Below, piece after piece: positions 1 to 63,422 of a stretch of DNA of 64,000 nucleotides (its first letter is position 1; each line of letters starts with the position of its first letter). Where the stretch lies: NCBI GenBank assembly GCA_963663545.1, contig OY760505.1:32001-96000 (forward strand), read 5' to 3'. The notes beneath the pieces are model-generated. The model was not told the origin of the DNA, did not search any database, and worked only from the letters and a program-made list of their open reading frames with translations. Source of the stretch: Candidatus Delongbacteria bacterium (GTDB lineage: Bacteria; CAIWAD01). The translations under genes were made by a program, and so were the position numbers.

Positions 1-690
1 GCCTTTGCCGACGACCACAGTATCGTGGCCGGTCTGGGACGCATCGGTGACACAAATCTGGCGATCATCGGACACCAGAAGGGGCGTGATACAAAGTCCA
101 ATATCTATCGCAATTTCGGCATGCCGCAGCCCGAGGGCTACCGCAAGGCGCTGCGTGTGATGCAGACCGCCGAGCGTTTCGGTCTGCCGGTGTTGACCTT
201 GGTGGATACTTCAGGCGCCTATCCCGGTCTGGGTGCGGAAGCGCGTGGGCAGGCTGAGGCTATTGCCCGTAATCTCTTCGAAATGGCCCGTTTGAAAGTG
301 CCCATCGTCACCGTTGTTGTGGGCGAAGGCGGATCTGGTGGCGCATTGGCGCTGGCCGTCGCCGACCGTGTGTTGATGTTCCGCCACTCGATTTACAGCG
401 TGATCAGCCCCGAGGGCTGCGCGTCCATTCTTTTCCGCGACGCGGGCAAAGCCCAGGAGGCCGCCGAGGCCATGCAGATCACCGCTGGCAGATTGTTAGA
501 GCGTGGCATCGTCGACGAGGTACTCGATGAGCCCGAAGGTGGCGCACATCGCGATTGGGACGCAGCTGCCCGAACCTTGCAAGCCGCAGTGATGGGCCAT
601 TTCAACGAGCTGAGCGCCCTGCCAGTGGACGAGCTGGTGACGCGGCGCATCGCCAAGTTTGATGCGATGGGAGAGTGGGAGCTTGCCTGA
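1..690 (+). CDS. accA: Acetyl-CoA carboxylase carboxyltransferase alpha subunit (5' end outside window)
   Basis: Motifs [42 protein letters not shown] and [13 protein letters not shown]; frame is open from base 1. Confidence 0.97.
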
Positions 691-1171
691 GTCCCGTCTT
701 CCGGCCGCCGACAGTGCAGGCTTTCGCGTCATCGATCGCATTCGCGTGCGCTACGCCGAGACGGACCAGATGGGCTACGCCTACTACGGCCACGCGGCCA
801 CCTGGTTCGAGCTGGCGCGCACAGGCCTTCTCAGGCTTGCCGGGCGTACTTATCGCAGCATCGAAGAGCAGGATGAACTCATTTTGCCTGTGCTCGAAAT
901 GAATATTGTGTATCACCAGGCAGCCCACTACGACGATGAACTCACGCTGCTGGCGCGCTGCGATGTATCACAGGATCACCGCGGTCGTCCTTCCCGTCTG
1001 CGCTTCCGCATGGAGTTCCAGATTTGCCGTGACACAGAGCTGCTCTACGAGGGCCACACGCTGCACTGCTTCCTCAGGCGTGATACACGAAGACCGGCCA
1101 ACATGCCTTCGTGGTTCCTGGAGCTTTTGCAGCAGTTGAACAGTAGCAGAGGAGATCAGACTCATGCATGA
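683..1171 (+). CDS. Acyl-CoA thioesterase, YbgC/FadM (4HBT hotdog) family
   Basis: [26 protein letters not shown] motif; probable TTG start overlapping the accA stop. Confidence 0.9.
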
Positions 1172-1325
1172 CAAGCTCCAAGAATGGTTGCCTTTTTTGT
1201 GCTGCCCGTTGTGTCGCGGTGAGTTGGAACTGCAGCGGGAGGCACTCTATTGCTGTGCTTGCGAGCGTGCCTATCCCATCATCGACGGAATTCCTGATCT
1301 GGTGCCGCCGGAGCGAGAGGACTGA
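1164..1325 (+). CDS. Trm112/YcaR family small zinc-ribbon protein, 53 aa (not in ORF track)
   Basis: Hand translation [53 protein letters not shown]; CPxC..CxxC..YPIxDGIP signature; GGAG RBS. Confidence 0.88.
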   Translation: MHDKLQEWLPFLCCPLCRGELELQREALYCCACERAYPIIDGIPDLVPPERED

Positions 1326-1382
1326 GGGCCGTTGGTCCGGCGCGCTTTGTTATCTTGACCGAAACTTTTCTGGAGAAGAATC

Positions 1383-1679: not shown

Positions 1680-1709
1680 GCCGCCTGTCGGTACTGTGAA
1701 AGGAAGAGG

Positions 1710-3954: not shown

Positions 3955-3962
3955 GACCGCGC

Positions 3963-5120: not shown

Positions 5121-6236
5121 ATGCTGACCCTGTTCTCCTTCATCATTGTCATCGGCATCATTATCACGGTTCACGAAGCGGGCCACTTCCTTGCTGCGCG
5201 CGCCGTCGGTATTCGCGTGGAGACTTTCTCCATTGGCTTTGGACCCGCCATCTATCGCTGGCAGCGCGGCGAAACCGAGTACCGTGTAGCCTGGATTCCG
5301 CTGGGCGGCTATGTGAAAATGGCGGGAATGATCGACGAAAGCCTGGACGAGCAGTCCGTCACGGGGGCGCCCGACGAGTTCATGTCGAAGAATTTCCTGC
5401 AGAAGAGCCTGGTGATTCTGGCTGGCGTGATCATGAACTTCGTTCTGGCCATCGTGTTGTTTACAACCCATGCCTGGTTTCAGGGAGTGCAAGAGCCCGT
5501 CGATCGGCCCTTGATCGGTGGAGTGGATGCGAATCAACCCGCCTACGCTGCCGGGCTGCGCGAAGGCGATCTTATTCTTAGCATCGAAGGCCGTAATGTG
5601 GACTCCTGGGTGGCCATGGCGGAGGAAATTCGTCAGCATCCCGAAGAACAGATTCAATTGTATGTGCTACGTGATACAGACTCGCTGCTGGTGCTCGTAA
5701 CTCCCGCACTAGTGCCCGCACCCAGCGGCAAGGAACAGGTGGGCGCCATCGGCATCATCCCCACCTACGAGACGCATCGCGTCGGTTTGATCTCGGGTCT
5801 GCGGGCGGGTACGCTGCAAACCTACGGCGTCATGTCAGCGGTCACCGGTACTCTTCGTGCGCTGATGACGGGTAACGCAGGGCTACGTGACCTGGGCGGA
5901 CCCCTCTTTATCGCTCAGCTTTCGGGCGAAAGCGCACGCAACGGCGTCTGGAGTTTTCTGGCCTTTTTGGCATTCATTTCCGTCAACATCGGTTTTCTGA
6001 ACCTCCTGCCCATTCCCGCACTTGACGGCGGCCACATGGTGTACATCTTCGTGGAAGGCCTGATGCGGCGACCTCTTCCGGTCAAGTTGAAATTGTGGAT
6101 CCAGCAGGTGGGCATGATCCTGCTGTTGGTACTGATGCTCATTATCCTGAAGAATGATGTTGTGCGCGTTTTCCAGCGGCATCAGAATACGTCACCTGCC
6201 ACGGAGCAGCTCCAGGAGACGGGAGAGCAGCCGTGA
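5121..6236 (+). CDS. rseP: RIP metalloprotease RseP (site-2 protease with PDZ domain)
   Basis: HEAGH, FSIGFGP, PLGGYVKM, NLLPIPALDGGH; adjacent to dxr. Confidence 0.96.
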   Translation: MLTLFSFIIVIGIIITVHEAGHFLAARAVGIRVETFSIGFGPAIYRWQRGETEYRVAWIPLGGYVKMAGMIDESLDEQSVTGAPDEFMSKNFLQKSLVILAGVIMNFVLAIVLFTTHAWFQGVQEPVDRPLIGGVDANQPAYAAGLREGDLILSIEGRNVDSWVAMAEEIRQHPEEQIQLYVLRDTDSLLVLVTPALVPAPSGKEQVGAIGIIPTYETHRVGLISGLRAGTLQTYGVMSAVTGTLRALMTGNAGLRDLGGPLFIAQLSGESARNGVWSFLAFLAFISVNIGFLNLLPIPALDGGHMVYIFVEGLMRRPLPVKLKLWIQQVGMILLLVLMLIILKNDVVRVFQRHQNTSPATEQLQETGEQP

Positions 6237-7633
6237 TTCGTGTGACGCTGTGCCTTCTGCTGGCCTTGTGCTTGCGTCAGGCCTGGGCCACACCTGATGC
6301 CGATACTCTGGACCGCATTGACCGCTTGGCGATCACAGCTTCGCTTAGTGAAATGGAGCAGGACTACGAGCGGGCGGCTGGCATTTGGCGACATCTGCTT
6401 CAGCTTGATCCCGAATGCGCCCAAGCTGTCGATGCCCTCTGGGATCTGGCGCTGGAGTTACGCGACGAAAACCTGCTGTTAAGCTGTGGCAAATGGTACA
6501 GCAGCCATTGGCCCTACAATCCAGAGCGAACCGCCGACTATGTGGATTTCTGCTACCGCAGTGGCAGAAGTCAACAGGTTGACGAGACACTGGACAGTCT
6601 GCCCGACTCAACCTGTATCCCCTTGCGCGTGCAGTTGCTGCTTGATCGCGACCGCTTGCGCGAGGCTGGCAAAGCGCTGGGGCGTTATTCGCGTCAGCCG
6701 CTGTCGCGTATTCTGGGTGACTATTATCAGGAAGACTACTTCTGGGAGCTCATCTTCGAATGGGGGCGTCGCGCCGAGCGGCTGAGCGCGGCCATCAAGC
6801 TCATTGATCGTTTTGCTGCTGCAGAATCCAGCGCGGCGGCGCAGATGACGCGCGCGCGCCTGTATTACCTGCTCGAGCGCGAGGACGCGGGCCGCGGTGC
6901 GCTTGAGAAGGCACTCAAACTGAATCCTGATTACCTGGAGGCATGGCTGCTTTTAGGGCGGATCCATCTCTATCGCAAAGAATACGAGCAATCGGTGCAG
7001 GCCTATCAACGGGCGGCGGACCTCGTCCCGGATGACCCGGAAGTGCTGCGCTATCTGGCCATTGCGTTGAGTTATGCAGGACGCAGCGCCGAAGCGGGTG
7101 AACTGCATGCGACACTGGTTAGCCGGTTTCCTATGGTGCAATCCCTCTGGGCCGATTACGGCACCTGGCTCGATCGGGCTGGCAATTTTGAGAAAGCACG
7201 CATCGTTTACGAGAAAGCGATTGAGGCTTTTGGTCAGGAGTCGTCGCCAGCGCTGCTGAACAACCTTGCCTTTCTGCTGGCCAATCAAGGTGTTGAAATG
7301 GATCGTGCCCTGATGCTGGTTACCCGCGCCCTGGATACGGATCCCGTTTCGGCCAGTTTTCTCGACACCAAGGGCTGGATTTTCTTCCGCATGGGACGGA
7401 TGCAAGAAGCACGCGCTTATCTGGAGCAGGCCTTCCGGCAAATGCCCGAATCCGGCGAGATTCAGTATCACATGGGTGAATTGGAACTACAGGCCGGCAA
7501 CGTGGATCTTGCCCGCGAATACTGGGAGCGCGCGCTCAAACTTGAACCTGGCATGAAAGTGATACATGAGCGTCTTGAAAGCCTCGAAGAACAGGACAGT
7601 GTTCCTGTGAGGAGTGAACATGATCCCAAGTGA
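6233..7633 (+). CDS. Exported tetratricopeptide-repeat protein
   Basis: Signal peptide; TPR motifs including LNNLAFLLA and FLDTKGWIFFRMG. Confidence 0.85.
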   Translation: MIRVTLCLLLALCLRQAWATPDADTLDRIDRLAITASLSEMEQDYERAAGIWRHLLQLDPECAQAVDALWDLALELRDENLLLSCGKWYSSHWPYNPERTADYVDFCYRSGRSQQVDETLDSLPDSTCIPLRVQLLLDRDRLREAGKALGRYSRQPLSRILGDYYQEDYFWELIFEWGRRAERLSAAIKLIDRFAAAESSAAAQMTRARLYYLLEREDAGRGALEKALKLNPDYLEAWLLLGRIHLYRKEYEQSVQAYQRAADLVPDDPEVLRYLAIALSYAGRSAEAGELHATLVSRFPMVQSLWADYGTWLDRAGNFEKARIVYEKAIEAFGQESSPALLNNLAFLLANQGVEMDRALMLVTRALDTDPVSASFLDTKGWIFFRMGRMQEARAYLEQAFRQMPESGEIQYHMGELELQAGNVDLAREYWERALKLEPGMKVIHERLESLEEQDSVPVRSEHDPK

Positions 7634-8969
7634 CCCCAAACAGCTTCAGCTGCAAATGGAGCAGGTCCTGGACCTGTGCAAAGAATGCGATCTGGCCGAC
7701 GTCCGCATCGACACTTCCTACGAGGCACTTTCGCGTTTTGCCAATAACAACATCCAGCAGAATGTCGCCCAGACGGGCACCGGCCTGACACTGGTGTTGA
7801 AAGAAAACGGCCGTCAAGCTACCGGCAACACGAATCGCCTGGACAAAGACAGTCTGCGGCGTCTGGTGGAAAGCACACGCTTTGCGGCCAGCAAGCAGAA
7901 GCCGATGGCGGAGGATGTGCCGCTGGTGGCTGCCTGCCCGACGGCGCACAAAGATTCGTTGGACCCCGCCACGGCAGAACTGAGTCCGGAGGAGAAGGCG
8001 CGTGACATCGGCCTGATCTGCGAGGCCGCTCGCGAGCAGGAAATGGTGGCTCACGGTATTTATCGCAACGGCTACACTCAGTTTGCCATGGCAAACAGCG
8101 CGGGGCTGTACTGCAGTTTCCAATCCTCTTCCGCGGCGGTTTCGGCAACGGTCGAGGGCGTGGATTCCACCGGTTGGGCCGAGCAGGAAAACCGCAAGGC
8201 CTCCGTGTTGCAAGTGGGCCAGGTGGCGCAGGAGGCGACGGAAATCGCTTTGCGCAGCCGCAATCCCCAGCCTTTGGAACCGGGCGTGTACGAGGTTGTA
8301 TTGCCGCCGGCGGGTGTGGCTGATTTGCTGATGTTTCTGTCCTATTCCGCCTTCAACGCAAAGGCGCTGCAGGATGGCACCAGCCCGATGGCGGGCAAGC
8401 TGGGGCAGAAGTTGTTTTCGGAGCACTTCTCGCTTAGCGATGACTTTGCTCATCCGCTGATCGACGGCATGCCCTTCGATTTCGAAGGTGTATCACGCCA
8501 GGCGGTCAAGTTGATCGAGCGGGGCGTCTTCAGCAATCCCGTGTACGATTTGAGCACGGCAAAGAAGGCGGGTACCGTCAGTACTGGCCACGGTTTGCCG
8601 CGGCCCAACTCCCACGGCCCGGTGGCGCTGAATCTAGTGATCGAGCCCGGATCCAGCAGTCTGGAAGAAATGATCGCCAACACCAAGCGCGGCTTGTTGG
8701 TGACACATCTGCATTACACCAACATGGTGGATCCTTCGGAGCTGACGCTGACGGGTATGACCCGCGACGGTCTGTTTTTGATCGAGAACGGCAAGCTCTC
8801 GCACCCCGTACGCAACATGCGCTTCACCGACAGTCTGTACCAGATTTTCGGCAGCATTAGTGCTGTGGGGCATGAACAGCAGTATCATGGCGGGTTTTTT
8901 GGCGGTGGTGGAGTGCTAAGCGCCATCAAGGTCGATCGCTTCCGCATGAGCAGCGAGAGCAGCTTCTAG
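7620..8969 (+). CDS. TldD/PmbA family protein, PmbA/TldE-like subunit
   Basis: RFANNNIQQN, LEPGVYEVVLPP, PFDFEG, STGHG, TGMTRDGLFLIENG; no HExxxH; paired with TldD. Confidence 0.9.
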   Translation: MIPSDPKQLQLQMEQVLDLCKECDLADVRIDTSYEALSRFANNNIQQNVAQTGTGLTLVLKENGRQATGNTNRLDKDSLRRLVESTRFAASKQKPMAEDVPLVAACPTAHKDSLDPATAELSPEEKARDIGLICEAAREQEMVAHGIYRNGYTQFAMANSAGLYCSFQSSSAAVSATVEGVDSTGWAEQENRKASVLQVGQVAQEATEIALRSRNPQPLEPGVYEVVLPPAGVADLLMFLSYSAFNAKALQDGTSPMAGKLGQKLFSEHFSLSDDFAHPLIDGMPFDFEGVSRQAVKLIERGVFSNPVYDLSTAKKAGTVSTGHGLPRPNSHGPVALNLVIEPGSSSLEEMIANTKRGLLVTHLHYTNMVDPSELTLTGMTRDGLFLIENGKLSHPVRNMRFTDSLYQIFGSISAVGHEQQYHGGFFGGGGVLSAIKVDRFRMSSESSF

Positions 8970-9007
8970 TCTGCGCTTTGGTCGAGGATCCACTTCGGGA
9001 GATCACA

Positions 9008-10447: not shown

Positions 10448-10471
10448 AACCGCCTATCCATTGAAATGCAG

Positions 10472-12398: not shown

Positions 12399-12416
12399 TT
12401 TGGAGACGAATTCAAC

Positions 12417-15352: not shown

Positions 15353-15778
15353 TCACCAGGGTACCTCGATCATGTTTGCGACTCGTTTCAGGGTTTGCAG
15401 GTGCGCGTGGTCATAGGTGCCCGTGATCACCCCCCACGTTGCGCCTAGCAGACTATGCCCCACCCACCTGGCCACATCCTCCGTTGGAACACCTGCGGCA
15501 CGCAGATCTGTGACCAGCGTGTGGCGGATTCCATGCAGTGGCTGAGCAATCTCAATTCCCAGTTCACGGACTGCGCCCTGGACGGCTCTGTAGTGTGCAT
15601 CCTGTCGAACCGTCCATGTACCCGCCCAGGCATCCAAAACGCTTTCCAGGACCGGGAATAGGGCTACCACTGTGCTGTCAACTTCGGCCGGAAGAAGCAG
15701 CGCTGCAACAGCATGCTGCGCCAGTGGTGTGATACAGATGCCAACCTGGACTTCGTGGATGTGGCCACGCCGCTGCAC
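15353..15778 (-). pseudogene. Tyrosine recombinase C-terminal fragment
   Basis: LHGIRHT (HxxR), WVGHS and catalytic Tyr in ITGTYDH; no intact N-terminal/core domain in frame. Confidence 0.8.
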
Positions 15779-17490: not shown

Positions 17491-17762
17491 GAGGAAGCCG
17501 CGCGCCCGCCCTTTCTGCTTGCAGAATCACGCTGTAATCTTTAGTCTTAGGCTCACATTGACCCACGGTTCAGCCGGTGTCCCCCTGAAGCATGCGCGCC
17601 TCGCAGAAGTACCGGCGATACCTAATCTTCACTTCTCTTTGTGCTGCAACCCGATTCCACGAGGTGCAGGTCCGGCTGACCTCAATGTGATTACGCCCGA
17701 CATGTTCATGCTGCTGCGTGATACAGGCTGAGGCTCAAGGATCTGCACAAAGGGAGGTCACC

Positions 17763-20351: not shown

Positions 20352-20372
20352 TGTGATACAAGACCTAACGCG

Positions 20373-27494: not shown

Positions 27495-27734
27495 GACGAA
27501 CTCCCGGGCGGACTACGTACCACTTGCCCTTCGGACAGGAATCAGTTGCTGTATCACGAAATACGTCCACCACCTTTGAAACCTTAAGTTCGCGAACTAC
27601 GGGCTAGGCGCAAAGTGGCTGAATTGTGTAGCGGAGGCTGCGGTTCGTATACCAAAAACTTTTTCAATCAAATCCAGAAAAAACAGAATTACGCCCTTGC
27701 TGTGTCGATAATGAGTGGGATCCAAGGAGAACTC

Positions 27735-44716: not shown

Positions 44717-45330
44717 AGTTGCAGAACTGGGTGCTGGCTCGTGGCTGCTATTGGGGCGTGGAAGCCCGTTTTGGTGTGATACCGGGTGTTGTGTCGACTG
44801 AAGTGGGGATGGCGTCTGGAACGCTGATCGAAAGCACTTCAACAGGAACCGAAAAGCCGGCAGAAGCCGTATGTATCACGCTCAATCCTGAGATAAGTCC
44901 AGTGAGTGAGTTGTTGGCTGTGTGGCACGAGGACCTGCCCGTTGAGTTGCCCGCGCCCGATGCGTGTTACAGAGCTGCCCTGTTCGTGCAGGATCACGAA
45001 CAGGAAGAAGTGGCCAGGGAGCTCATTGTCACTCTTCAGCAGGCACACTGCGGCCGCGAAATACACATCGATCTGTTGCAGCTTGAGAGTTTTCGACCTG
45101 CGCAAGAGCGGCATCAGAAATTTCTGTTGCGTCGTTTCTCTCATCTGTTAGTTGCGCTTGAGGCGGAGCATGGCCCGCGCGATAAGATCTTTGCCTCGCA
45201 GCTTGGAACACGGCTTAATGGTTTTCTTGCCGGGCATGGACGCTTTGAAGAGCTGCGTGATACACTTGACACACTAGCACTGGACGCGGAGATGAAGGAT
45301 TTCATTTACGGTCGTTGGTTTGACGCTTGA
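44713..45330 (+). CDS. msrA: Peptide methionine sulfoxide reductase MsrA-like protein (divergent)
   Basis: GCYWGVEARFG, YRAALF, FRPAQERHQKF. Confidence 0.7.
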   Translation: MKLQNWVLARGCYWGVEARFGVIPGVVSTEVGMASGTLIESTSTGTEKPAEAVCITLNPEISPVSELLAVWHEDLPVELPAPDACYRAALFVQDHEQEEVARELIVTLQQAHCGREIHIDLLQLESFRPAQERHQKFLLRRFSHLLVALEAEHGPRDKIFASQLGTRLNGFLAGHGRFEELRDTLDTLALDAEMKDFIYGRWFDA

Positions 45331-51356: not shown

Positions 51357-52719
51357 GTCCGCACACACACGGCTACTTCAGACCCTGAGCGAACATCTGC
51401 CCGCGGATGGAAGCCCCTTGTTACTGGCCCTTTCAGGAGGGCTTGATTCAACTTGCCTGCTGGAGCTCTGCGTGCGAGAACGAGCCCGGAGCGGTCGACG
51501 CTTGCGCGCATTGCATGTGAATCACGGCCTGCGTGGAAGCGATGCTGATGCCGATGAGGGGCTGGTGCGCGATCAGTGCCGTACACACGGAGTCCCCTTG
51601 CGGGTACTGTGCGCCGACCCCTCGGTTCTGCGTCAAGGAAACCTGCAGCATCAGGCTCACTGTTTTCGCCGTACTTGCCTGCTTGATGAGCGCGAAGAAG
51701 GGGAGTGGATTCTGACCGCGCATCACGCAGCCGATCAGACAGAGAGCCTTCTGGCTGCACTCCTGCATGCGAAACTCCCCTGGGGTCTGGCGGGAATTCT
51801 GCCGCTGGACAAGCCCTGGCTGCGTCCCCTATTGTCCGTATCACGTAGTGAATTACTAGCCTGGGCGCTAGCGAACGGGCTGACGTGGCGCGAAGACAAA
51901 AGCAATTGGGATTCCAGCTATGAGCGTAACTACATCCGGCACGCGATTGCGGCTCCATTGCGTGACAGACTAGGCGAAGAGCTGGAGCAGATCTTCGGGC
52001 GCATCTCGTGCCAAGTAGCCGCTGCGCGAGAGAGTTTGCAACAATGCAGCGAGGAAGTTCTTGATAATTCAACGCTTGGCAAGATAGAGGACTGTATCAC
52101 GCTTGCGCGTGCACCCATACTTCAGTACCATGATCTGATTGTTCGAGAACTCTTGCTGAGGCTGTCCAGGCGCTTGGCCTTTTGGCCAAGACCACCGATT
52201 CAACAGCGTCTGCAAGAGATCGTTGACTTTATGCGACAGGGATCTCCCGGCAAGTGGAAAGCGCTTGATGCGCAATGGGAGCTTAGCCTTAGTCGTGGTC
52301 GTGTGCAGATCCATCGTGGATTGCCGGAGCTTCCTGCTGAAGCGGGACTAGCAGCTACGCCACTGACGTACGGCTTGGGCCGCTTTTTCGTTGCAGAAGC
52401 TCCCGTTTCCAATGGTGCCACCTCCTTGTGTCTTAGCGACGACCAGCTGAACCGGGCGCGCTTGCGCAGATGGTCTGCTGGTGATCGCGTGCGTCTTTCG
52501 TGCACAAGTGGGAAGTCGGTTGCCGACCTGCTGAGCGCCGCCGGCCTTACGCGCTATGAGAAAGCGTGTCAACCGGTCGTGGAGCTTGACCGTAAAATTC
52601 TCTGGATACCGGGTGTTGCCGCCGCGTGGCGGGAACCAGACATGGAATTCATTTCTTCAAACGGGATACGTTATGAGTCGTTTGCACATCGACAACATGA
52701 CCTTCGAGGTCTTGATTGA
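51346..52719 (+). CDS. tilS: tRNA(Ile)-lysidine synthase
   Basis: LALSGGLDS, HVNHGLRG, TAHHAADQTES, LRPLL, WREDKSN..YERNYIRH; precedes hpt-ftsH. Confidence 0.92.
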   Translation: MRNESAHTRLLQTLSEHLPADGSPLLLALSGGLDSTCLLELCVRERARSGRRLRALHVNHGLRGSDADADEGLVRDQCRTHGVPLRVLCADPSVLRQGNLQHQAHCFRRTCLLDEREEGEWILTAHHAADQTESLLAALLHAKLPWGLAGILPLDKPWLRPLLSVSRSELLAWALANGLTWREDKSNWDSSYERNYIRHAIAAPLRDRLGEELEQIFGRISCQVAAARESLQQCSEEVLDNSTLGKIEDCITLARAPILQYHDLIVRELLLRLSRRLAFWPRPPIQQRLQEIVDFMRQGSPGKWKALDAQWELSLSRGRVQIHRGLPELPAEAGLAATPLTYGLGRFFVAEAPVSNGATSLCLSDDQLNRARLRRWSAGDRVRLSCTSGKSVADLLSAAGLTRYEKACQPVVELDRKILWIPGVAAAWREPDMEFISSNGIRYESFAHRQHDLRGLD

Positions 52720-53251: not shown

Positions 53252-55309
53252 ATGAGTGAAGGACCGCGACGCGAACAGCGGCCCCGCAAGGAAAACGGCG
53301 GATCCAATTGGCGCAAGGCCTATGGTTCGGTCATTTTCTGGGTCATGATGCTGGTGGTCATGATTCTGCTCGCCCAGGCCTTCGACAGTGAACCTGCCGT
53401 CGAGCACCTGACCTACACCAATTACCGCGAGATGGTAGAAGCGCCGGATACACGCGTCGAGTCCATCAAAGTAGTCGCGGACCCCGTGACGCCGGTTGGA
53501 ACCCTGCGCGTACTCGAGGACGGCGGTGAGGGCGAGCGCAACTACAAGCAGTACACGGTCAATCTGCCTGAACAACTGGCCGACGATCTGGAGCTGTGGC
53601 GCACGCGCAACATTCCCTTCGATTTTGAACCTCGGCGCACGAATTGGATGGCCTATATCCTGACCTCCATTCTGCCCTGGGTGGTACTTTTCGGCGTCTG
53701 GATCTTCTTCTTGAGGCGCATGCAGGGAGGCGGCGGCGGTAGTCGCGGAGTCTTTAATTTTGGCAAGAGCCGCGCGAAGATGTCCAGCGAGAATCAGGTC
53801 AAGGTGACCTTTGCCGATGTAGCCGGAGCGGACGAAGCCAAAGAAGAACTGGCCGAGATTATCGAATTCCTCAAGGAGCCGCGACGCTTCAGTCGCCTTG
53901 GAGGACGCATACCCAAGGGAGCATTGATGCTCGGCCCCCCGGGAACCGGCAAGACACTGCTGGCCCGAGCGGTGGCCGGCGAGGCAGGCGTGCCTTTCTT
54001 CAGTATGAGCGGTGCGGATTTCGTCGAGATGTTCGTGGGCGTTGGTGCCAGCCGTGTGCGTGACCTGTTCGAACAGGGCAAGAAGAGCGCGCCCTGCATT
54101 ATTTTCATCGACGAAATCGACGCCGTTGGCCGCCAGCGCGGTGCCGGTCTGGGGGGCGGACACGACGAGCGGGAGCAGACCCTGAATCAGCTTCTGGTTG
54201 AGATGGACGGCTTCGAGTCCAACGAAGGTGTCATTCTAATTGCGGCCACCAACCGTCCCGATGTGCTGGATCCAGCGCTGATGCGTCCTGGTCGCTTTGA
54301 CCGGCAAATTGTCGTGGATCGCCCCGACGTTCGTGGTCGCGAGGGCATTCTGCGCGTGCACTCTGCCAAGGTTCCGCTGAGCAAGGATGTGGACCTGAAG
54401 GTAGTTGCCAAAGGGACTCCGGGCCTGGCGGGCGCAGAGTTGGCAAACATCGTGAACGAGGCCGCGCTTCTGGCCGCACGTCGCAATCAGACCGAAGTCG
54501 CCATGGAGGATTTCGAAGAGGCACGCGACAAGGTGCTAATGGGTACGGCGCGCAGAAGTCTGATGCTGACCGAAGAGGACAAGCGCATCACAGCCTTCCA
54601 CGAGGCGGGCCATGCTTTGGTTTCGGCCTTGCTGCCCGACTCCAATCCGTTGCACAAAGTGACCATCATTCCACGCGGTCGCGCCTTGGGCTTGACCTGG
54701 CAGCTGCCGGAGGACAACTTGCACCAGACGCGCCGCAAACTGCTGGCAGAACTGCGGGTGCTGTATGCGGGACGCGAAGCCGAGAAGCTCGTCTTTGGTG
54801 ATGTAACGACGGGTGCCCAGAACGATATTCAGCGTGCTACACAAATCGCCGAAGCGATGGTTTGTGAAGTGGGCATGAGCGATGCAATGGGCCTGCGCAG
54901 CTACGGCAAGAAGCAGGAAGAGATTTTCCTGGGGCGCGAAATCAGCCAACGGCGCGATTTCTCTGAGCGCACCGCCGAGCGCATCGATGCCGAGGTGGAC
55001 CGGATTTTACAGGAAGCTCGTGAAGAAACAGCCAAGCTACTGCAGGAGAACGAAGAGCATCTGCGTCGTCTGGCTGAAGAACTGCTGAAGCGCGAGATTC
55101 TGGATCGTGAGGACATTGAGACCATCCTGCGAGGCGAAGAGCTTCAGCCCATGCCGAACGGTGATACAAAGCCCGAGACCTCCCCTGACGAAGAACCCGT
55201 TGCCGAAGCGTCAGCGGAGGCTGCGGTTGACAGTTCGGAGGAAGTCCTTGACGGAGAGCGCGCCTCAGGTTTAGGAGATGAAATAGAGGCGGACGAGGAG
55301 CGTGCATGA
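53252..55309 (+). CDS. ftsH: ATP-dependent zinc metalloprotease FtsH
   Basis: [29 protein letters not shown]; two TM segments. Confidence 0.98.
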
Positions 55310-55926: not shown

Positions 55927-57485
55927 TGGGAAGGCAGCCCGAGCATTCCTCGACCAAACCTGTGTATTACGCCGGCGAGGGCTTTGACGATCAACCGCCT
56001 CGGCGGCGCGGCCTATTTCTATGGCTGTCCATTCTGTTGCTGGCATTGCTTGCTATCGGGGGAGCCATATTCTGGCTGCACGCGAGGCAGACGGCGAGTT
56101 TTATCGTTCACGTCGATAGTCAACCCCCGGGTGCCAGCGTCCTGCTGGATATGCAGCCTACGGAGTATATAACACCGGCTCGGATCGAGCTGAAGGCGAA
56201 GCAAGCGACGCTGCTACAGGTTCGCACCCCAGGGATGAACAGCGACCCGATGGCCGTGCAACTCAGTGTGGCCCGTGATACAAGCCTCTGCTTTGTGCTT
56301 ACCCCGCTACCGCCGACTGTAGTGACACCAGCGGAATCCAGACAAACAAACGCTGGCAGTGTTAGGCCCGAAAACGTTGTGTCACGTGGTGGCGAACTTG
56401 CCCTGCTGGAGGCGCGACTCGGGGTTGATCTTGATGTGGCGGAGACCGGTACACGCATACAAGCCTCAGCTCCCGTCGCAGGCCAAAGCCGTGATACACA
56501 AACACGAAAGCCAAAGACTCAGGCCGCATCACGCTTTGATCTACCCACCATTCCGGCGGAGCGACCGGTAGAGCAGGATCCTCCTGCCCAAGAGACGCGA
56601 CAGGGCCGCCTGCGCGTCGACAATTGGCGTGACGCTTTCCGATTGCGGTTGGATGATCGTGAAATCGGTTACCAGGGCGAGTTCGAGCTCGTGCCGGGGC
56701 CACATCGTCTCACAATTGATCTGGATCGCCAGCTATTGCTCGATACGCTCATGACCTTCAAACCCGGAGAAGTACACGCGCTGCAGTTGCCGGGTGAGGC
56801 GCATTTTGTCTCCCTGATCACCTTGCCGGTCGAAGGCGAGATCGTCAGTGGGGATGAAGTGTTGGGCACCGGCACGGCGTTGATTTCGCGCTCGCGGCTG
56901 CCAATGGAGATTCACTTCATGCCCGTCAAGGGCTTTTTGGAACCCGCCACCTTGGTTCTCAGCAAGCGCGATCCGCTCGAAGTGGAGGCCTTCTACATTG
57001 AGGAGCAAACACTTTCCTGGGATCTGCGACCGAGTGAACACCAGTTGCGCGCTATCGCGGCCGGTTATTATCTGCCCGGTCAGGGCTTTGTTGCCGATCG
57101 GGAGCGCGGGCCGCAAACCGATGGAGAGCGACTGCTACTCGGGCGAGCCTTCCATGACCGCAGGCCCGGTGGTAGCCAGCAGATCGAGTTCCTCTTTGTG
57201 CTTCCTGAAGGCGTGCATGAAGGCATGCCAGCGCGCCTGCGATTGCGTGTCGCGGATAGCGAAGACAGCTTTCCGATGCAGTTCACTGATCTGGCGACGC
57301 TCACCGTGGAGCTGAACGGCCAACGCCTCGCGGACGATGTCACGCTGGGGCAGGAAACCGAGACCCGCAATTGGCCCATCAGTCGTATGATTCACTCGGG
57401 CGAAAACCGGCTCAGCCTGCGTAACACAGAGCGAGCTACCAGCGCCAGTGCGATCTACAGTGTCGAAGTGGAATTGAAGCGATGA
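55926..57485 (+). CDS. Single-pass membrane protein with PEGA-like and additional beta domains
   Basis: TM segment, VDSQPPGASVLLD...TP, LVPGPHRLTI, C-terminal VELNG...GENRLSL. Confidence 0.7.
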   Translation: MGRQPEHSSTKPVYYAGEGFDDQPPRRRGLFLWLSILLLALLAIGGAIFWLHARQTASFIVHVDSQPPGASVLLDMQPTEYITPARIELKAKQATLLQVRTPGMNSDPMAVQLSVARDTSLCFVLTPLPPTVVTPAESRQTNAGSVRPENVVSRGGELALLEARLGVDLDVAETGTRIQASAPVAGQSRDTQTRKPKTQAASRFDLPTIPAERPVEQDPPAQETRQGRLRVDNWRDAFRLRLDDREIGYQGEFELVPGPHRLTIDLDRQLLLDTLMTFKPGEVHALQLPGEAHFVSLITLPVEGEIVSGDEVLGTGTALISRSRLPMEIHFMPVKGFLEPATLVLSKRDPLEVEAFYIEEQTLSWDLRPSEHQLRAIAAGYYLPGQGFVADRERGPQTDGERLLLGRAFHDRRPGGSQQIEFLFVLPEGVHEGMPARLRLRVADSEDSFPMQFTDLATLTVELNGQRLADDVTLGQETETRNWPISRMIHSGENRLSLRNTERATSASAIYSVEVELKR

Positions 57486-59011
57486 CTGAGCTGCTGATTC
57501 TTTGGAACCAGGCCGGCGGAGCCGTTCCTGGCGGTCTGTGGCCTTTGCTGCTTCTTAGTCTTTTTCTGGCATTCCTGTTTTTACGGATGCTTCCGGGCAC
57601 GGGTGTCTTTGGCGAGCGGGGTCCGGTGCCAGCCCTTCTGCTGGCGCTGGCACTTCTGATCGCAGCCCATCTGATTCTGCGTACGAAACTGACACCGCGT
57701 CCGGGCGAAGCGGTTCTGAGCTTGTGGCCCGTGGAAGGCCTTCCCGCTGCGCGCGCCCTTTCTGCAACGGCTGAAGTAGCGCTCTCGCGTGAGCATGAGC
57801 TGTGCTTCGCCGATCGAGATTTACGCTTGCAGGTAAATCGCGCTTTTTTACCGGCGGACCTCTTTCAGCCCAGGGATAAGAGCGGCATTGATCGTCTGAT
57901 GAAGGCGCTTGCTGCGGATGTGCTGGTAAATGCGCGTTTGACCGAGGATACGCTCGTGATACAGGCATGGGAGCGTGTCTGGAGTGTGACACGTCAGCTT
58001 GATCAGCAGCAGTTGCCCCTCGACGGAGAAAGCGAAGAGGCCAGAGTGCTGTCGGCGCACACGCTCTACGATGGGTTCATACGTACTCTGCTGCAGCACG
58101 AGTTCGTGTCGGTGTCACTTCCCGCAAGCGATTTGCCGCTTTACGGGGCCGTAGTCGATTCTACTGAGACCTATCTGGCTCTTCCGGCCGAACCGGGAAG
58201 CGAATATGCAGCAGTGCGCATGGCTTCACTGCGCTTTCATCTGGGAGTGGATGAGGCACAGGTAGTTGAGGTGATCAATGCAGGACTGGAGCAGGGCGAC
58301 GAGGCCGGCGTTGACTTATGGTTACTGGCAGCGGAGTGGTTTGCTGCACGTGGAGAATGGGAGCAAGTGATACAGGCGCTTGAAAACGCAATGGCTGTTG
58401 ATCCGGCGCATCCCCAGATTTACTGGATGATTTCCCATCTGAACCGCGACGCGCGCAAACACTTTGGTTTTTACGATGAACCGGCTCCGCTACTGCGCGG
58501 AATCAGCCTGCATCCCGCCTATCTGCCCACGGTGTATCGCCTCTGCGAACGTCTTTCGGCACACCGCCGTAAGGACGAGGCTGCCAGCTATGCTGATGTG
58601 GCCATGATGATCTGCCCACGAGATAGTGAACTGCGGCTTCAGCGAGCAAATCTGGCGCTTAGCCTGATGCAGCACGGCTATGCCCTTCAGCTCTATCAGG
58701 GGTTGTGCACAGAGTTTCCGCGTGATCCGCGTGCCTTCATCAATTTGGGGCAGTTGTATTACATGCTGCAGGAGTACGAGGCGGCAATTGCGCCCCTGAC
58801 CGAGGCGGTTGCGCTGGGTGCTCCGCCAAAACTACTGCACATTCTCGGCGTGTGTTACGACGAGCTGGGACAGGATGAGCAAGCTGTGCACTACTACCGG
58901 CGACGGATGCAATTGGGCGGTGATCGCCAGGAGCTCGAAGCAACCCGGCTTCGCCTGGCCGCCCACTTCCCGGAAATGCAGCCGGAGGTCCAGGAGGAGG
59001 CAAGGCCTTGA
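57482..59011 (+). CDS. Membrane-anchored TPR protein
   Basis: Two N-terminal TM segments; C-terminal TPRs (AFINLGQLYY, ILGVCYDELG). Confidence 0.75.
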   Translation: MTELLILWNQAGGAVPGGLWPLLLLSLFLAFLFLRMLPGTGVFGERGPVPALLLALALLIAAHLILRTKLTPRPGEAVLSLWPVEGLPAARALSATAEVALSREHELCFADRDLRLQVNRAFLPADLFQPRDKSGIDRLMKALAADVLVNARLTEDTLVIQAWERVWSVTRQLDQQQLPLDGESEEARVLSAHTLYDGFIRTLLQHEFVSVSLPASDLPLYGAVVDSTETYLALPAEPGSEYAAVRMASLRFHLGVDEAQVVEVINAGLEQGDEAGVDLWLLAAEWFAARGEWEQVIQALENAMAVDPAHPQIYWMISHLNRDARKHFGFYDEPAPLLRGISLHPAYLPTVYRLCERLSAHRRKDEAASYADVAMMICPRDSELRLQRANLALSLMQHGYALQLYQGLCTEFPRDPRAFINLGQLYYMLQEYEAAIAPLTEAVALGAPPKLLHILGVCYDELGQDEQAVHYYRRRMQLGGDRQELEATRLRLAAHFPEMQPEVQEEARP

Positions 59012-59673
59012 AAGAGGAAGAACGCCCCGCGCAGCGTTTGTATCACGGCAAGCGCATTGAAGTTCACTTTGATAAATCGCGCTGCAACCACGTCGCTGAA
59101 TGCTTGCGTCGTCTGCCTAATGTGTTTGATCTGACGCGCAGACCCTGGATTCTTCCCGACGCGGCCGATGTGGATGAGCTGGCGCGTACGATAGAAGCCT
59201 GCCCGACCGGCGCCCTGCATTACCGTCGTCTGGATGGTGGCCCGCAGGAAGCGGCTCCGGACCGTAATACACTGCGAATCATGCCCCATGGACCCGCCTA
59301 TCTGCACGGCGAGTTGATTATCGTCGATGGCGAGGGTCACGAGCTCTTTCGTGATACAAGGATGGGCGTGTGCCGTTGCGGAAAGAGCGCGCACCCGCCC
59401 CATTGTGATGGTCGCCATTTGTACGAGGGTTTTCGAAACCGGCCCGAAAAACAGCATGACGCTGAATCTCTTCAGCAGACCCCGCCTGCAGGACCGCTGC
59501 GTGTCACCGTTCGTCCGGGAGGTAGTGTCCGTGTGGAAGGAGCGGTGGAGATCCAGGATCGAAGCGGCGAGGCACTTGCGCGACGAGATCGTGTCTCGAT
59601 ATGCGCCTGCGGACGGACAAAGGCATCGCCCTGGTGTGACGGTAGCCACCGTGATACGGCCCCCGAAGAGTAA
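59008..59673 (+). CDS. Iron-sulfur protein: divergent 4Fe-4S domain plus two CDGSH domains
   Basis: CNHVAEC...CPTGAL; CRCGKSAHPPHCDGRH; CACGRTKASPWCDGSH. Confidence 0.9.
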   Translation: MKEEERPAQRLYHGKRIEVHFDKSRCNHVAECLRRLPNVFDLTRRPWILPDAADVDELARTIEACPTGALHYRRLDGGPQEAAPDRNTLRIMPHGPAYLHGELIIVDGEGHELFRDTRMGVCRCGKSAHPPHCDGRHLYEGFRNRPEKQHDAESLQQTPPAGPLRVTVRPGGSVRVEGAVEIQDRSGEALARRDRVSICACGRTKASPWCDGSHRDTAPEE

Positions 59674-60551: not shown

Positions 60552-61252
60552 TACGCAGCGTGCCGTGCTCGTAGCCAGCGCACTCCCACCAGATCGTAGA
60601 TCCCCACCCACAAGCGGTTGTGCAAACCGTACTTGGTGCGGCCAGCACCCCTTGGACGGTGATTTACATCGATCTCGCCCAGACGATATCCATTGAGCAG
60701 AAACAGGGTAGGAAGAAAACGGTGCATGCCTTTGAATTGCGGTAGGTGCATGGCGCATTCGCGACGAAAAACCCGTATCGAACAGCCCACGTCTCGAACC
60801 GAGTAGCCCACCATCGCATTGCGTGTACCGTTGGCAATGCGCGACGAGAGTTTGCGCAGCCAGTTGTCCTGCCGCTTTCGACGGTATCCATTAACCGCGT
60901 CCACTTGTGTGTCACGCAAGGTCCTGAGCAGGCGAGGCAAATCGGACGGATCGTTTTGTCCGTCTCCGTCGAGCATGCTGAATAGCTCACCCTTGGCTAC
61001 GCTGAAACCTGCAAGAAGTGCTGCGCTTTGGCCGCTTCCAGCAGCGAGCTTCAGTAGTCTGTGGGGCCCTGCTGCATCGTGCATCTGTTGAAGCAAGTGG
61101 CGGCTGCCATCCTGCGAGAAATCGTCTACCCAGATACATTCCCAGCTCACCACTCCGGTCAGCGCCTGTTCCAGCTCTGCGGCCAGACCAGGAATGCTCT
61201 CTACTTCATCTCGCACGGGAATGACAATGCTCAGTTCAACAGGGCCGGTCAT
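60524..61252 (-). CDS. GT2 polyprenyl-phosphate glycosyltransferase (DPM1/ArnC-like)
   Basis: SIVIPVRDE, VDDFSQDGS, LDGDGQNDP, HRFLPTL, HRPRGAGRTKYG. Confidence 0.9.
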   Translation of the reverse strand: MTGPVELSIVIPVRDEVESIPGLAAELEQALTGVVSWECIWVDDFSQDGSRHLLQQMHDAAGPHRLLKLAAGSGQSAALLAGFSVAKGELFSMLDGDGQNDPSDLPRLLRTLRDTQVDAVNGYRRKRQDNWLRKLSSRIANGTRNAMVGYSVRDVGCSIRVFRRECAMHLPQFKGMHRFLPTLFLLNGYRLGEIDVNHRPRGAGRTKYGLHNRLWVGIYDLVGVRWLRARHAAYHIERDTSS

Positions 61253-62817
61253 GGCTGGGGCCTCCAGTACACAAGAATCCAGGTGTGAGCGTGATCCGGC
61301 CGGAAGGGATCGGGGAAGACACGGCGCAAAACCTCTTCTGTAGGCAGCTGAAACTTGCGCAGTTCGTTCTCTTCGGCCATCAGATATCCGCCCCTTGGTT
61401 GTTGTTGAAACAGCTGCTCATCGTTCAAGATTTGTAACACGGGGCGATGCAGATAGAAGCTGGCAGAGTAGCGGTCATTGCGCCAGTTCGCCAGCAGAGC
61501 CTCTTCCGCGAGTGTATCACGCACAGCCTGGTAGAAGGGGCGTGGGCAGCGGTAATCGTTGATCTGAGGCAAGAGAATCCACGCTGCAGAGAAGAGGGCT
61601 ACAGCCAGCAAGAATGATCCGCGCAGCCAATGCCCCCGAACCAACTGCGAGCGCAGCAGCCACCATGAGCTGCCCCATAGCGGGATCGCCGTTAGAAGCC
61701 CGGGAAGCCCCCACCCCTTCCATGCCGCCCAGGGCAACGCCAGCAATACGAGAAGTGCAATCCACTGTGGCAGGTGATACAAAAGTAGCAGCGGGTTTCG
61801 ATTGCGCAACGGTCTTGCCGGACTCAGTACAAGGAGCAAACAAAGTGCCGGAGCAATTGATAACAGATAGTGCGCGCGCTTCGAGGTCGCCATACTGAGT
61901 AGAAGTATCGGTGCAACAAAACCCGTCCAAAGCGCAGAGATAGCACCTGCGGGAAGACCGGAGCGTCGTGTGTCACGCAAGGGAAGCAATAGTAGCCAGG
62001 GCAGAAAGCCGGGCAGCGCACCTAGGTAGTACCACCAGGCTTCGCGGTGTACGTTAAACTCCTCCTTGCCCACGCGATCTAGCGTTTCTCTGCGCCAGAT
62101 ATCCATCGCATCAGGAACCCTGTGTAGCACGGCCAAGAACCAAGGGAGGATGATCAGAAGCTGAATTGCCAGCAGCAGCAGCCAACCGCTGGCACCCAGC
62201 AAGGTTTTCTGGCCGTTGCGTACGCGCACCAACTCGCCCACTATCAGCGCTGGAAGAAGAAAAATCCAGATTAGCGGTCCTTTGATCATAAAACCCAGGG
62301 CAAGTGCAAGAGCGATCAAGGACTGCCAGCCGCGATGCCGAGCACCGTGCAGCACGAGCCGCATCCATGCCCAAAGGCCAAACATCGTGCAACTCATCAG
62401 CAAGGCTTCCAGCTCGGCCATGCGCCCCATGCCGAAAACCAGTGGGAAGGTGATCCAAACGAATCCACTGCGCCAGAGAACGGCCTGGGTGGCCTTGCGT
62501 CGCTGTAACAAATCCAGCAGCATCCAGAGGCTGAGCAGACAGGCCAACAGTGAAGGAATGCGTGCGGCAAATTCGCTGACGCCGAACAAGCTCATGCTAC
62601 CGGCGATCAGCCAATAGGCCAAGGGCGGCTTTGTAATGAATGGGGTACCGTTCAGGTGCGGTACAAGCCACTCGTTATCCGCAATCATCTGGCGCGCCGT
62701 CTCGCTGCGGCGAGATTCACCATGAGCTCCCCAGAAACCCTGCATGGGAAGTGCAGCGGTCCAGACCAGCAGCGCCGTCAACAGGATCATCGGAAGAATG
62801 AGAGCCTTGCGCGTCAT
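61249..62817 (-). CDS. ArnT/GT39-like membrane glycosyltransferase
   Basis: ESRRSETARQM..WLVPHLNG..KPPLAYW, FAARIPS, KGP, SKRAHYLL. Confidence 0.88.
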   Translation of the reverse strand: MTRKALILPMILLTALLVWTAALPMQGFWGAHGESRRSETARQMIADNEWLVPHLNGTPFITKPPLAYWLIAGSMSLFGVSEFAARIPSLLACLLSLWMLLDLLQRRKATQAVLWRSGFVWITFPLVFGMGRMAELEALLMSCTMFGLWAWMRLVLHGARHRGWQSLIALALALGFMIKGPLIWIFLLPALIVGELVRVRNGQKTLLGASGWLLLLAIQLLIILPWFLAVLHRVPDAMDIWRRETLDRVGKEEFNVHREAWWYYLGALPGFLPWLLLLPLRDTRRSGLPAGAISALWTGFVAPILLLSMATSKRAHYLLSIAPALCLLLVLSPARPLRNRNPLLLLYHLPQWIALLVLLALPWAAWKGWGLPGLLTAIPLWGSSWWLLRSQLVRGHWLRGSFLLAVALFSAAWILLPQINDYRCPRPFYQAVRDTLAEEALLANWRNDRYSASFYLHRPVLQILNDEQLFQQQPRGGYLMAEENELRKFQLPTEEVLRRVFPDPFRPDHAHTWILVYWRPQP

Positions 62818-63422
62818 GACGCTTCTACCTTGGGGAGATAGCGGAGATAGAGGTTGCGAATGTAGGTCCATAATCCGAAAGCTGAGCCCATAAGGATCAC
62901 CCAGTCATGACGATGGCCAGCGTAAAGAAGAATCAGGAGGGCGCCGAAAAGGGACAGCCACCAGAAAGGCGTTGTCAGCTCGGCTTTGCCGTCGGACTCT
63001 AGAGAATACCACTGCACGGGAAAACGCGACAGTAGAAGCGTTTGTCCGATCCAGCCTGCTAGTAAAACCAGCATGTGGTCTTCGTGAATGGAAGGCGCGT
63101 GATACATCAGTAGCAGCTCAACCAAAATCAACGCAATTAGAATTACTCTGCGAAGGTGAAGTCCGATACGTGGCGAGCGAGGGAAGTAGCGCAGCTGCAG
63201 ATTGCGCAAATAAATGAGTGCGCCAACCGCTTGTCCAAAACTGATGATCAGATCGTGTCCCACTACCGCGTAGGTGCCCAGTAGCAGCGCTCCGCAGAGA
63301 CTCATCTCCCAGTAGCCCGCCGGAACATGGCTTTTACCGGTTCGCTCAGTTTGGATGAGTTGCAACGCTTGGCGACCGAAGTAGCAGACTTGGCCTAAAA
63401 ATCCCAGCGCCATGTAATACAA
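62814..63422 (-). CDS. Lipid-A-disaccharide synthase N-terminal (LAB_N) domain membrane protein, two copies of the domain
   Basis: GFLGQVCYFGR..Q..ER..KSHVPAGYW and GWIGQTLLLSRFPVQWYSLES..PFWWLSLFG..YIRNL. Confidence 0.82.
   Translation of the reverse strand: MYYMALGFLGQVCYFGRQALQLIQTERTGKSHVPAGYWEMSLCGALLLGTYAVVGHDLIISFGQAVGALIYLRNLQLRYFPRSPRIGLHLRRVILIALILVELLLMYHAPSIHEDHMLVLLAGWIGQTLLLSRFPVQWYSLESDGKAELTTPFWWLSLFGALLILLYAGHRHDWVILMGSAFGLWTYIRNLYLRYLPKVEAS

Follow-up and report, generated by a model that had tools for sequence, protein, structure and literature searches.

Short DNA words by which bacteria mark their own DNA in a sequence-specific manner have, to our knowledge, been experimentally established in two proteobacterial families only, as DNA uptake sequences (DUS) in the Neisseriaceae and as uptake signal sequences (USS) in the Pasteurellaceae; the highly iterated palindrome HIP1 (GCGATCGC) of cyanobacteria is now suspected to be a further case. 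USS and DUS raise the abundance of the peptides they specify and favour poorly conserved genes and residues (Findlay and Redfield, PMC2817400), DUS form dialects among related lineages (Frye et al., PMC3630211), and about half of the DNA uptake-enhancing sequences (DUES) lie within transcriptional terminators, often as inverted pairs (10.1101/2025.10.24.684340). HIP1 is reported to be 15- to 300-fold over-represented, positionally conserved and periodic (10-90 kb), and Xu et al. read its conservation as selection for a chromosomal function (PMC5861425). Other reports describe a phylum-level correlation of HIP1 with DNA-transfer genes (PMC13756078) and a methylation-dependent enhancement of transformation, with mention of a Chi-like contribution (10.1101/2024.09.10.611283). 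The present analysis concerns the octamer GTGATACA in a stretch of 64,000 nucleotides from a Candidatus Delongbacteria bacterium (assembly GCA_963663545.1, contig OY760505.1, positions 32,001 to 96,000 of the forward strand), hereafter the window. The genome it belongs to (G000; the window is G000:C1:32001-96000) is a single contig of 3,721,866 bp with 56.7% GC. A first reading of the window, made from the sequence alone, had proposed the octamer as an undescribed, lineage-specific DNA-level signal. According to the follow-up, GTGATACA is a DNA-level 'self' word that is specific to the lineage and hyper-abundant in it. The term 'undescribed' holds for the searched literature, where neither the octamer nor its core appears as a whole word in any paper or preprint; publications mentioning Delongbacteria appear to be surveys.

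An exact DNA search of the window finds 46 copies of GTGATACA, 31 on the plus and 15 on the minus strand, and every position and strand listed by the sequence-only reading is exact, with none missed and none spurious. Dinucleotide-preserving shuffles of the window (n = 100) contain 0.83 copies on average and three at most, and none attains 46. The strong enrichment claimed earlier is thus real, but its size, given as about 30-fold, was too low, as the shuffles yield about 55-fold. Related variants are common, as had been noticed, but their counts were slightly underestimated: GTGACACA/TGTGTCAC occur 18 times (7 + 11) instead of about 16, and GTGATACG (nine copies) and GTGATACC (four copies) together 13 times instead of about nine. 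The signal is not limited to the window, since the whole genome contains 3,149 copies (1,599 on the plus and 1,550 on the minus strand; 0.85 per kb), which places GTGATACA first by count among all 65,536 octamers. Its observed-to-expected ratio (O/E) is 30.5 under an order-2 and 17.9 under an order-3 Markov model; the maximal-order ratio is merely 1.10, because the signal resides in the 7-mer core GTGATAC, which has 4,934 sites and is enriched 12.2-fold. The median spacing between copies is 618 bp, and the counts in 50-kb bins are over-dispersed (mean 42.6, standard deviation 14.4). Alignment of the flanks of all 3,149 sites reveals a bias solely at position -1 (A 0.06, C 0.40, T 0.30) and position +1 (A 0.35), and the extended form is Y-GTGATACA-[A/C]. 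Since the flanks are not conserved beyond these two positions, the octamer stands alone as an asymmetric word and does not belong to a repeat element; a longer repeat or a mobile element as its source is ruled out.

The relation of the word to coding was analysed with 2,518 approximate open reading frames (ORFs), which were called by a simple codon score, cover 85% of the genome and omit some real genes. Called genes harbour 2,667 copies, a further 441 are found outside them and 41 cross an ORF end, corresponding to densities of 0.843 per kb in called genes and 0.790 per kb outside. As had been observed in the window, the word is read in several frames, which are exactly the five stop-free ones: genic sites encode RDT (969), V-I-Q/H (507), VSx (588), LYH (431) or CIT (172), and the sixth frame (G-TGA-TAC-A) is empty because it contains a stop codon. 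A synonymous-codon shuffle within each ORF (20 replicates) gives an expectation of 269 copies with a maximum of 286, compared to 2,670 observed. This 9.9-fold excess is a lower bound, because the shuffle retains the codon usage and the peptides that the word has already inflated, and it supports the earlier statement that codon and amino-acid bias are insufficient as an explanation. The probability that the octamer merely reflects codon usage, the composition of amino acids or bases, or copies of a longer dispersed repeat is vanishingly small: apart from the excess over the synonymous shuffle, non-genic density equals genic density, the flanks are not conserved, and the word is missing from the orthologous positions of relatives with about 60% amino-acid identity; genome G001 described below, for instance, shares 1 of 135.

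The phylum is represented by 12 species genomes of one class and two families (f1 and f2), in which the copies of GTGATACA are distributed as follows:

G000 (the genome of the window): 3,149
G002, family f1: 2,460
G004, family f1: 809
G003, family f1: 408
G001, family f1: 137
G005-G008, genus g6, family f1: 29-131
G009-G011, family f2: 524-1,030
29 genomes of other phyla: 10-109, with a reversed-word control of similar size

In 11 of the 12 phylum genomes, from both families, the count (45 to 3,149) is at least four-fold above the reversed-word control. The analysed part of G002 carries the same word at 0.98 per kb. In G004, the whole GTRWYACA family is enriched with a flat profile, and GTAATACA reaches 50-fold, while in G009 the enrichment (5.6-fold) is confined to the exact word; G001 and G005 show only traces. 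G004 also over-represents the palindrome CTTAAG (48 versus 12.1) and CCTTAAGG (12 versus 1.1), for which the ratios in G000 are 1.4-1.95. The top word of G003 is the palindrome YGTATACR: GTATAC has 241 sites in 449 kb (10-fold) and CGTATAC 215 versus 14.8, and GTATAC is depleted in G000 (0.5-fold). A second word of G003, CGTGATCCA, occurs 84 times versus 5.1 expected (16.5-fold). Both are one edit away from GTGATACA and keep the rule that the 5' neighbour is Y and not A; they qualify as true dialects as described by Frye et al. No hyper-abundant replacement word was found in 200 kb of the word-poor G005, and 554 kb of G001 contain only weak members of the word family. The occurrence of the same word in both families, its restriction to one phylum, its near-absence from foreign DNA (see below) and the dialects of G003 add to the codon shuffle and the equal genic and non-genic densities in supporting a lineage-specific signal at the DNA level.

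Orthologous positions were compared using tblastn-based alignments with best (not reciprocal) hits, which yielded 231 gene pairs for 600 kb of G002 and 204 pairs for 554 kb of G001, both at about 60% amino-acid identity. G000 and its sister genus G002 share 37 of 205 sites (18%), whereas the value for control 8-mers is 6.4%; with G001 only the single site mentioned above is shared. For the pair G000/G002, one genome pair at saturated divergence, the Jaccard index is 0.097 compared to 0.034 for pooled GC-matched controls; however, frequent control words scatter widely enough to include it (median 0.053, 95th percentile 0.148), and its rank among them is 77 of 811. Codon conservation inside the word is mixed, with the rare codons ACA, GTA and TCA being better kept there than elsewhere (0.22-0.28 versus 0.06-0.10). 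Because the Jaccard index exceeds the pooled controls yet lies inside the frequent-word spread, turnover of sites dominates and retention is modest: individual sites turn over while the density persists.

The word has reshaped the proteome of G000. Amino-acid identity under the word is 0.485 in comparison with G002 and 0.452 with G001, compared to 0.55 in the flanks and 0.61 in the proteins overall. Word density drops as protein conservation rises, with a correlation of rho -0.34 against G001 (from 1.45 to 0.43 per kb) and of rho -0.11 against G002 (p = 0.087). The tripeptides specified by the word have O/E values of 2.5-5.5, with the exception of SDT (1.15), and the word itself encodes 318 of 418 VIQ (76%), 190 of 293 VIH and 172 of 193 CIT tripeptides as well as about 17% of the rare ATA codons. 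Tripeptide excess and placement in poorly conserved regions match the USS/DUS signatures of PMC2817400. The word appears to be kept abundant by a force that is independent of position and is opposed by purifying selection on proteins. An alternative would be a HIP1-like word under selection for a chromosome-level function in nucleoid or domain organization, perhaps marked by a methyltransferase and without a role in uptake. The phylum-wide distribution, an orphan methyltransferase found in 12 of 12 genomes, retention above the GC-matched controls together with the better-kept rare codons, and the palindromic dialect of G003 agree with this, and a role of this type has been advocated for HIP1 by Xu et al. 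(PMC5861425). However, the word of G000 is asymmetric, the Jaccard index does not leave the range of frequent control words, 82% of the sites are absent at the corresponding positions of G002, and density depends on local constraint rather than on position, so that a chromosomal function of this kind is rather unlikely.

The tolerance of the word to base changes was determined by comparing one-off variants with the order-2 expectation in G000. Variants at G1, T2 and C7 have O/E values of 0.4-1.1, which identifies these positions as strict. Position 3 tolerates A (9.9), position 5 tolerates C (10.9) and position 4 tolerates T (15.4) and C (3.9); position 6 is weakly tolerant (1.5-3.1), and at position 8 A is favoured over G (9.6). 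The effects of double variants combine about multiplicatively. The set of enriched variants resembles the degenerate palindrome GTRWYAC, which could be bound by a homodimer; however, the mixed form GTG-A-TAC (12.2-fold) exceeds the symmetric forms GTGWCAC (4.8-fold) and GTAWTAC (4.3-fold), and mirror positions differ, T2 being strict and A6 tolerant. The word of G000 is therefore asymmetric, a palindrome read by a homodimer is ruled out, and a single asymmetric reader is suggested. The variant landscape resembles what a single protein that recognises DNA asymmetrically would be expected to produce.

A profile resembling a position weight matrix would also be compatible with binding sites for a ParB/Noc-like or another abundant nucleoid protein, an option raised by the sequence-only reading because GTGATACA is one base away from GTGAAACA, a parS half-site. 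GTGAAACA itself is not enriched in G000 (83 copies, O/E 0.7; one copy in the window), and G000 encodes a single ParB without a paralogue. Moreover, we know of no ParB, Noc, SlmA or MatP regulon with thousands of positionally unconserved sites, and this explanation is highly improbable.

The variant counts also bear on the idea that sequence-specific biased repair or gene conversion, unrelated to transformation, turns near-cognates into the word. At the strict positions, one-off variants fall below expectation (O/E 0.4-0.7), as if precursors had been converted; sites turn over with lineage-specific gains, and the density is not tracked by transformation genes. However, the depletion is in part spurious, since the word itself raises the trinucleotide counts used for the expectation. 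When the four variants are added up, each of the eight positions yields 3,241-4,934 sites, and for position 1 the total exceeds the summed expectation about 7.8-fold; a single-base repair bias cannot explain this abundance, and no repair or conversion system acting on several positions in this manner is known to us. A classical 5-methylcytosine/Vsr origin, the type of repair-driven motif that had been considered at first, is rejected: a Vsr endonuclease was not found in G000, and C5-methyltransferases do not track the word, as they are present in 5 of 12 genomes and missing from the word-bearing G004, G009 and G010 as well as from the 67%-complete G011. Biased conversion of this kind is rather unlikely.

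GC skew places the replication terminus of G000 near 0.13 Mb and the origin near 1.95 Mb; the latter agrees with the location of a DnaA homologue (1.937 Mb). The sole ParB homologue is encoded at G000:C1:13082-13363, about 13 kb from the contig start, upstream of the window and near the skew-inferred terminus; if the GC-skew reading is right, parB is unusually far from the origin. The leading strand carries 1,759 of the 3,149 copies (55.9%), compared to 76.9% of gene bases co-oriented with replication, and a replichore polarity as known from FtsK-orienting polar sequences (KOPS) or Chi is thereby rejected. Nevertheless, a Chi-like hotspot or self-protection site for RecBCD/AddAB had to be weighed, since the word is an asymmetric octamer that is over-represented natively and rare in foreign DNA, and since G000 encodes RecC and a RecB-like protein. 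The density of the word is about four times that of Chi in E. coli. RecC is found in all nine genomes of family f1, including the word-poor genus g6, and in none of the three genomes of the word-carrying family f2, which have an adjacent AddAB-like pair instead (G009:C13:64382-68505; G010:C4:21677-25770). By gene content, the small phylum shows a switch of the machinery for processing DNA ends between f1 and f2. As one word spans this switch and its strand bias is weak, a Chi role is very unlikely, even though a Chi-like contribution is mentioned for HIP1 in the preprint (10.1101/2024.09.10.611283).

Neighbouring sites follow no orientation rule genome-wide, and no positional bias within genes was detected (chi-square p = 0.11). 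In the first 20 nt past stop codons, 35-39 sites per 10 nt are found in both orientations versus 10.7 expected; the word is about three-fold denser in the first 20-30 nt after stops, though outside hairpins, and 38 ORFs genome-wide end on the word's own TGA. A block of 159.9 kb at the contig end (G000:C1:3562000-3721866) has only ten core sites, corresponding to 0.06 per kb versus 1.33 genome-wide, which is close to background. The block has mostly 45-50% GC and a GC skew of -0.002, compared to +0.04 to +0.05 in both flanks. It contains genes for three IS200-type transposases, HsdM, XseA, Psd and AroQ, an Rnf operon, a DnaA-like gene and genes of housekeeping type. A homologue in the native part exists for 21 of the 60 block genes with at least 200 amino acids, the XseA copies, for example, being 41% identical, and neither a tRNA gene nor a direct repeat was found at the edges of the block. 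Either a large segment was inserted recently or the assembly is chimeric here; in both cases, the word marks only the lineage's own DNA.

G000 carries competence genes and an orphan methyltransferase, both of which the sequence-only reading had proposed to look for. The type IV pilus cluster is complete, with a pilin, a second N-methyl protein, PilT, PilM, PilO, a secretin, PilB, PilC and a prepilin peptidase, and a ComEA-like protein, ComEC and DprA are also encoded. The pilin has 136 and the ComEA-like protein 168 amino acids, and the cluster also includes a protein of 154 amino acids. ComEC and the secretin are each present in 11 of 12 phylum genomes, and two uncharacterised pilus-cluster proteins of 224 and 624 amino acids in 12 of 12, word-poor ones included. 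Three tandem paralogues of the 624-amino-acid protein, which belongs to no known family, are located at G000:C1:878725-884934 (0.879-0.885 Mb), directly upstream of the only C5 DNA methyltransferase of G000 (886666-887733). The beta-class N6/N4 orphan methyltransferase found in 12 of 12 genomes (G000:C1:381006-382118 in G000) is located amid housekeeping genes with no nuclease gene adjoining.

The best mechanistic reading is that GTGATACA serves as a self word linked to transformation, and that methylation may be involved in reading it; judged from gene content and word statistics, it has not quite an even chance of being correct. A process independent of position would favour alleles that bear the word and would be opposed by purifying selection on proteins, and the likeliest such process would be that natural transformation preferentially takes up and/or recombines DNA carrying the word. 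The word might be read via methylation by the phylum-wide orphan methyltransferase, as proposed for HIP1, so that the uptake-receptor and the methylation-linked options of the sequence-only reading may represent a single mechanism, and a drifting specificity of the reader could give rise to the lineage dialects. Several observations speak against this reading. The word-poor genus g6 and G001 carry ComEC, the secretin and both pilus-cluster proteins, so that the transformation machinery does not discriminate between word-rich and word-poor relatives; in the comparison of presence/absence with density across the 12 genomes, none of ComEC, the secretin, the C5-, N6/N4- and N6-methyltransferases, RecC and the 224- and 624-amino-acid proteins tracks the word. 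The ComP_DUS profile PF16732 has no match in G000, with 0 of 14 control genomes matched either, and the orphan methyltransferase is only distantly related to CcrM, RsrI and DpnA, with scores far under the equivalog cut-offs. Close or inverted pairs are not in excess (143 observed within 60 bp versus 156 Poisson-expected), and only 5 of 3,147 native sites overlap terminator hairpins (358 hairpins from a simple finder of our own), in contrast to about half of the DUES. That 18% of the sites are common to G000 and G002 despite saturated divergence could instead point to selection acting on a chromosomal role, as Xu et al. concluded for HIP1, and the lineage is known from metagenome assemblies alone.

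A sequence-specific genome-writing system, consisting of a reader and a biased conversion or repair activity that acts independently of transformation and whose specificity drifts between lineages, is conceivable as well, if on the unlikely side. Under this assumption, the specificity would have drifted from the asymmetric YGTGATACA to the palindromic YGTATACR, and such a system would explain why transformation genes do not track the density and why the terminator architecture of DUS/USS is absent.

The 46 copies in the window are listed below; all are exact matches, and the ORF, sense and peptide are derived from our own ORF calls.

86..93, plus strand: inside an ORF, sense, RDT
909..916, minus strand: ORF 659-1171(+), antisense, VYH
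964..971, minus strand: ORF 659-1171(+), antisense, DVSQ
1080..1087, plus strand: ORF 659-1171(+), sense, RDT
5671..5678, plus strand: M50 peptidase ORF 5121-6236(+), sense, RDT
7559..7566, plus strand: TPR ORF 6233-7633(+), sense, VIH
8489..8496, minus strand: PmbA/TldD ORF 7614-8969(+), antisense, GVSR
15729..15736, plus strand: ORF 15353-15778(-), antisense, CIT
17718..17725, plus strand: first in-frame GTG of the GAF histidine-kinase ORF 17718-19517(+), VIQ
17776..17783, plus strand: GAF histidine-kinase ORF 17718-19517(+), sense, GDT
18084..18091, plus strand: GAF histidine-kinase ORF 17718-19517(+), sense, VIH
18251..18258, minus strand: GAF histidine-kinase ORF 17718-19517(+), antisense, VVSQ
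18411..18418, plus strand: GAF histidine-kinase ORF 17718-19517(+), sense, VIQ
18466..18473, minus strand: GAF histidine-kinase ORF 17718-19517(+), antisense, LYH
20353..20360, plus strand: intergenic, 59 nt past the stop of ORF 20420-23380(-)
20678..20685, plus strand: PAS histidine-kinase ORF 20420-23380(-), antisense, MYH
22979..22986, plus strand: PAS histidine-kinase ORF 20420-23380(-), antisense, LYH
27550..27557, minus strand: outside ORF calls, between ORFs 26184-27494(-) and 27615-28136(+)
36718..36725, minus strand: ORF 36255-36908(+), antisense, LYH
36751..36758, plus strand: ORF 36255-36908(+), sense, CDT
36917..36924, minus strand: TAtT ORF 36905-37738(+), antisense, CIT
37368..37375, minus strand: TAtT ORF 36905-37738(+), antisense, LYH
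38517..38524, minus strand: DctP ORF 37821-38867(+), antisense, CIT
38886..38893, plus strand: intergenic, 18 nt past the stop of ORF 37821-38867(+)
39219..39226, plus strand: outside ORF calls
40099..40106, plus strand: DctM ORF 39256-40614(+), sense, VIH
41383..41390, plus strand: ORF 40614-42185(+), sense, CDT
42217..42224, plus strand: first in-frame GTG of ORF 42217-42717(+), VIQ
43185..43192, minus strand: ORF 43139-43693(+), antisense, LYH
43646..43653, plus strand: ORF 43139-43693(+), sense, VIH
43810..43817, plus strand: outside ORF calls
44420..44427, plus strand: ORF 44297-44716(+), sense, VIQ
44673..44680, plus strand: ORF 44297-44716(+), sense, GDT
44872..44879, minus strand: ORF 44713-45330(+), antisense, CIT
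45257..45264, plus strand: ORF 44713-45330(+), sense, RDT
52093..52100, minus strand: outside ORF calls, yet within the separately listed PP-loop ORF 51346-52719(+)
55161..55168, plus strand: FtsH ORF 53252-55309(+), sense, GDT
56275..56282, plus strand: ORF 55926-57485(+), sense, RDT
56491..56498, plus strand: ORF 55926-57485(+), sense, RDT
57956..57963, plus strand: TPR ORF 57482-59011(+), sense, VIQ
58367..58374, plus strand: TPR ORF 57482-59011(+), sense, VIQ
59039..59046, minus strand: ORF 59008-59673(+), antisense, LYH
59351..59358, plus strand: ORF 59008-59673(+), sense, RDT
61513..61520, minus strand: PMT_2 ORF 61249-62871(-), sense, RDT
61774..61781, plus strand: PMT_2 ORF 61249-62871(-), antisense, LYH
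63099..63106, plus strand: ORF 62814-63422(-), antisense, MYH

At 17718-17725 and 42217-42224, the word's own GTG is the first in-frame start codon of an ORF, and the first-start rule has therefore probably overextended ORFs 17718-19517(+) and 42217-42717(+). Three stretches of the window (6.8-9.2 kb) are free of the octamer: 8497-15728, which encodes a 575-amino-acid protein of no known family and ClpB; 27558-36717, with an amylase, a hybrid kinase and a 975-amino-acid protein; and 45265-52092, with a response regulator, an aconitase and two tRNAs. Another octamer-free gap of 12.9 kb begins about 1.8 kb past the end of the window. The 975-amino-acid protein (33130-36057, minus strand) matches Por_Secre_tail, a sorting domain of the type IX secretion system, which fits an affiliation with the Fibrobacteres-Chlorobi-Bacteroidetes (FCB) group; weak partial matches to CelD_N, HiaBD2 and cytochrome c552 are also present.

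As a self word, GTGATACA would add a third case, independent of the other two and from a deep-branching lineage without cultured members, and if such words are common, the evolution of genomes and proteins would be subject to a general force that has gone unrecognised. In practical terms, the word sharply distinguishes native from foreign or mis-assembled DNA in metagenome bins, as illustrated by the 160-kb block that it flagged in G000, and the dialect pair G000/G003 provides a natural specificity-swap contrast for finding the reader.

Among the known word biases, very short patch (VSP) repair in E. coli, in which Dcm and Vsr act on CCWGG against CTWGG, resembles the present case in being a DNA-level process that shifts word frequencies irrespective of coding; it differs in that Vsr was not found in G000, C5-methyltransferases do not follow the word and the enrichment goes beyond what conversion at a single position can yield. 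Like Chi, GTGATACA is an asymmetric octamer that is over-represented, specific to its lineage and a marker of native DNA, but it is only weakly co-oriented with replication, common to RecBCD and AddAB lineages and much denser. With HIP1 it shares the hyper-abundance of an octamer at the level of a phylum with lineage variants, the independence of reading frame without any sign of a peptide or RNA role, and the co-occurrence of conserved orphan methyltransferases, and recent work ties HIP1 to transformation as well. In contrast to HIP1, however, the word of G000 is non-palindromic, with only the G003 dialect being a palindrome, and its sites are modestly conserved, whereas those of HIP1 are reported to be clearly conserved (PMC5861425). 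DUS and USS differ from GTGATACA in their paired and terminator-associated architecture, and GTGATACA is shorter and softer (7-8 bp, with many variants tolerated), covers a whole small phylum instead of one family and has one palindromic dialect; its uptake specificity is putative. What it has in common with DUS and USS is a short asymmetric word at about one copy per kb on both strands and in several frames, the raised peptides and the preference for poorly conserved genes and residues, the absence from foreign DNA, dialects between lineages (as described in PMC3630211), and a host with a type IV pilus, ComEA, ComEC and DprA. Thus, GTGATACA joins the asymmetry, dialects and proteome effect of DUS/USS with the phylum-wide spread and conserved orphan methyltransferase of HIP1, and it combines features of both while matching the full definition of neither.

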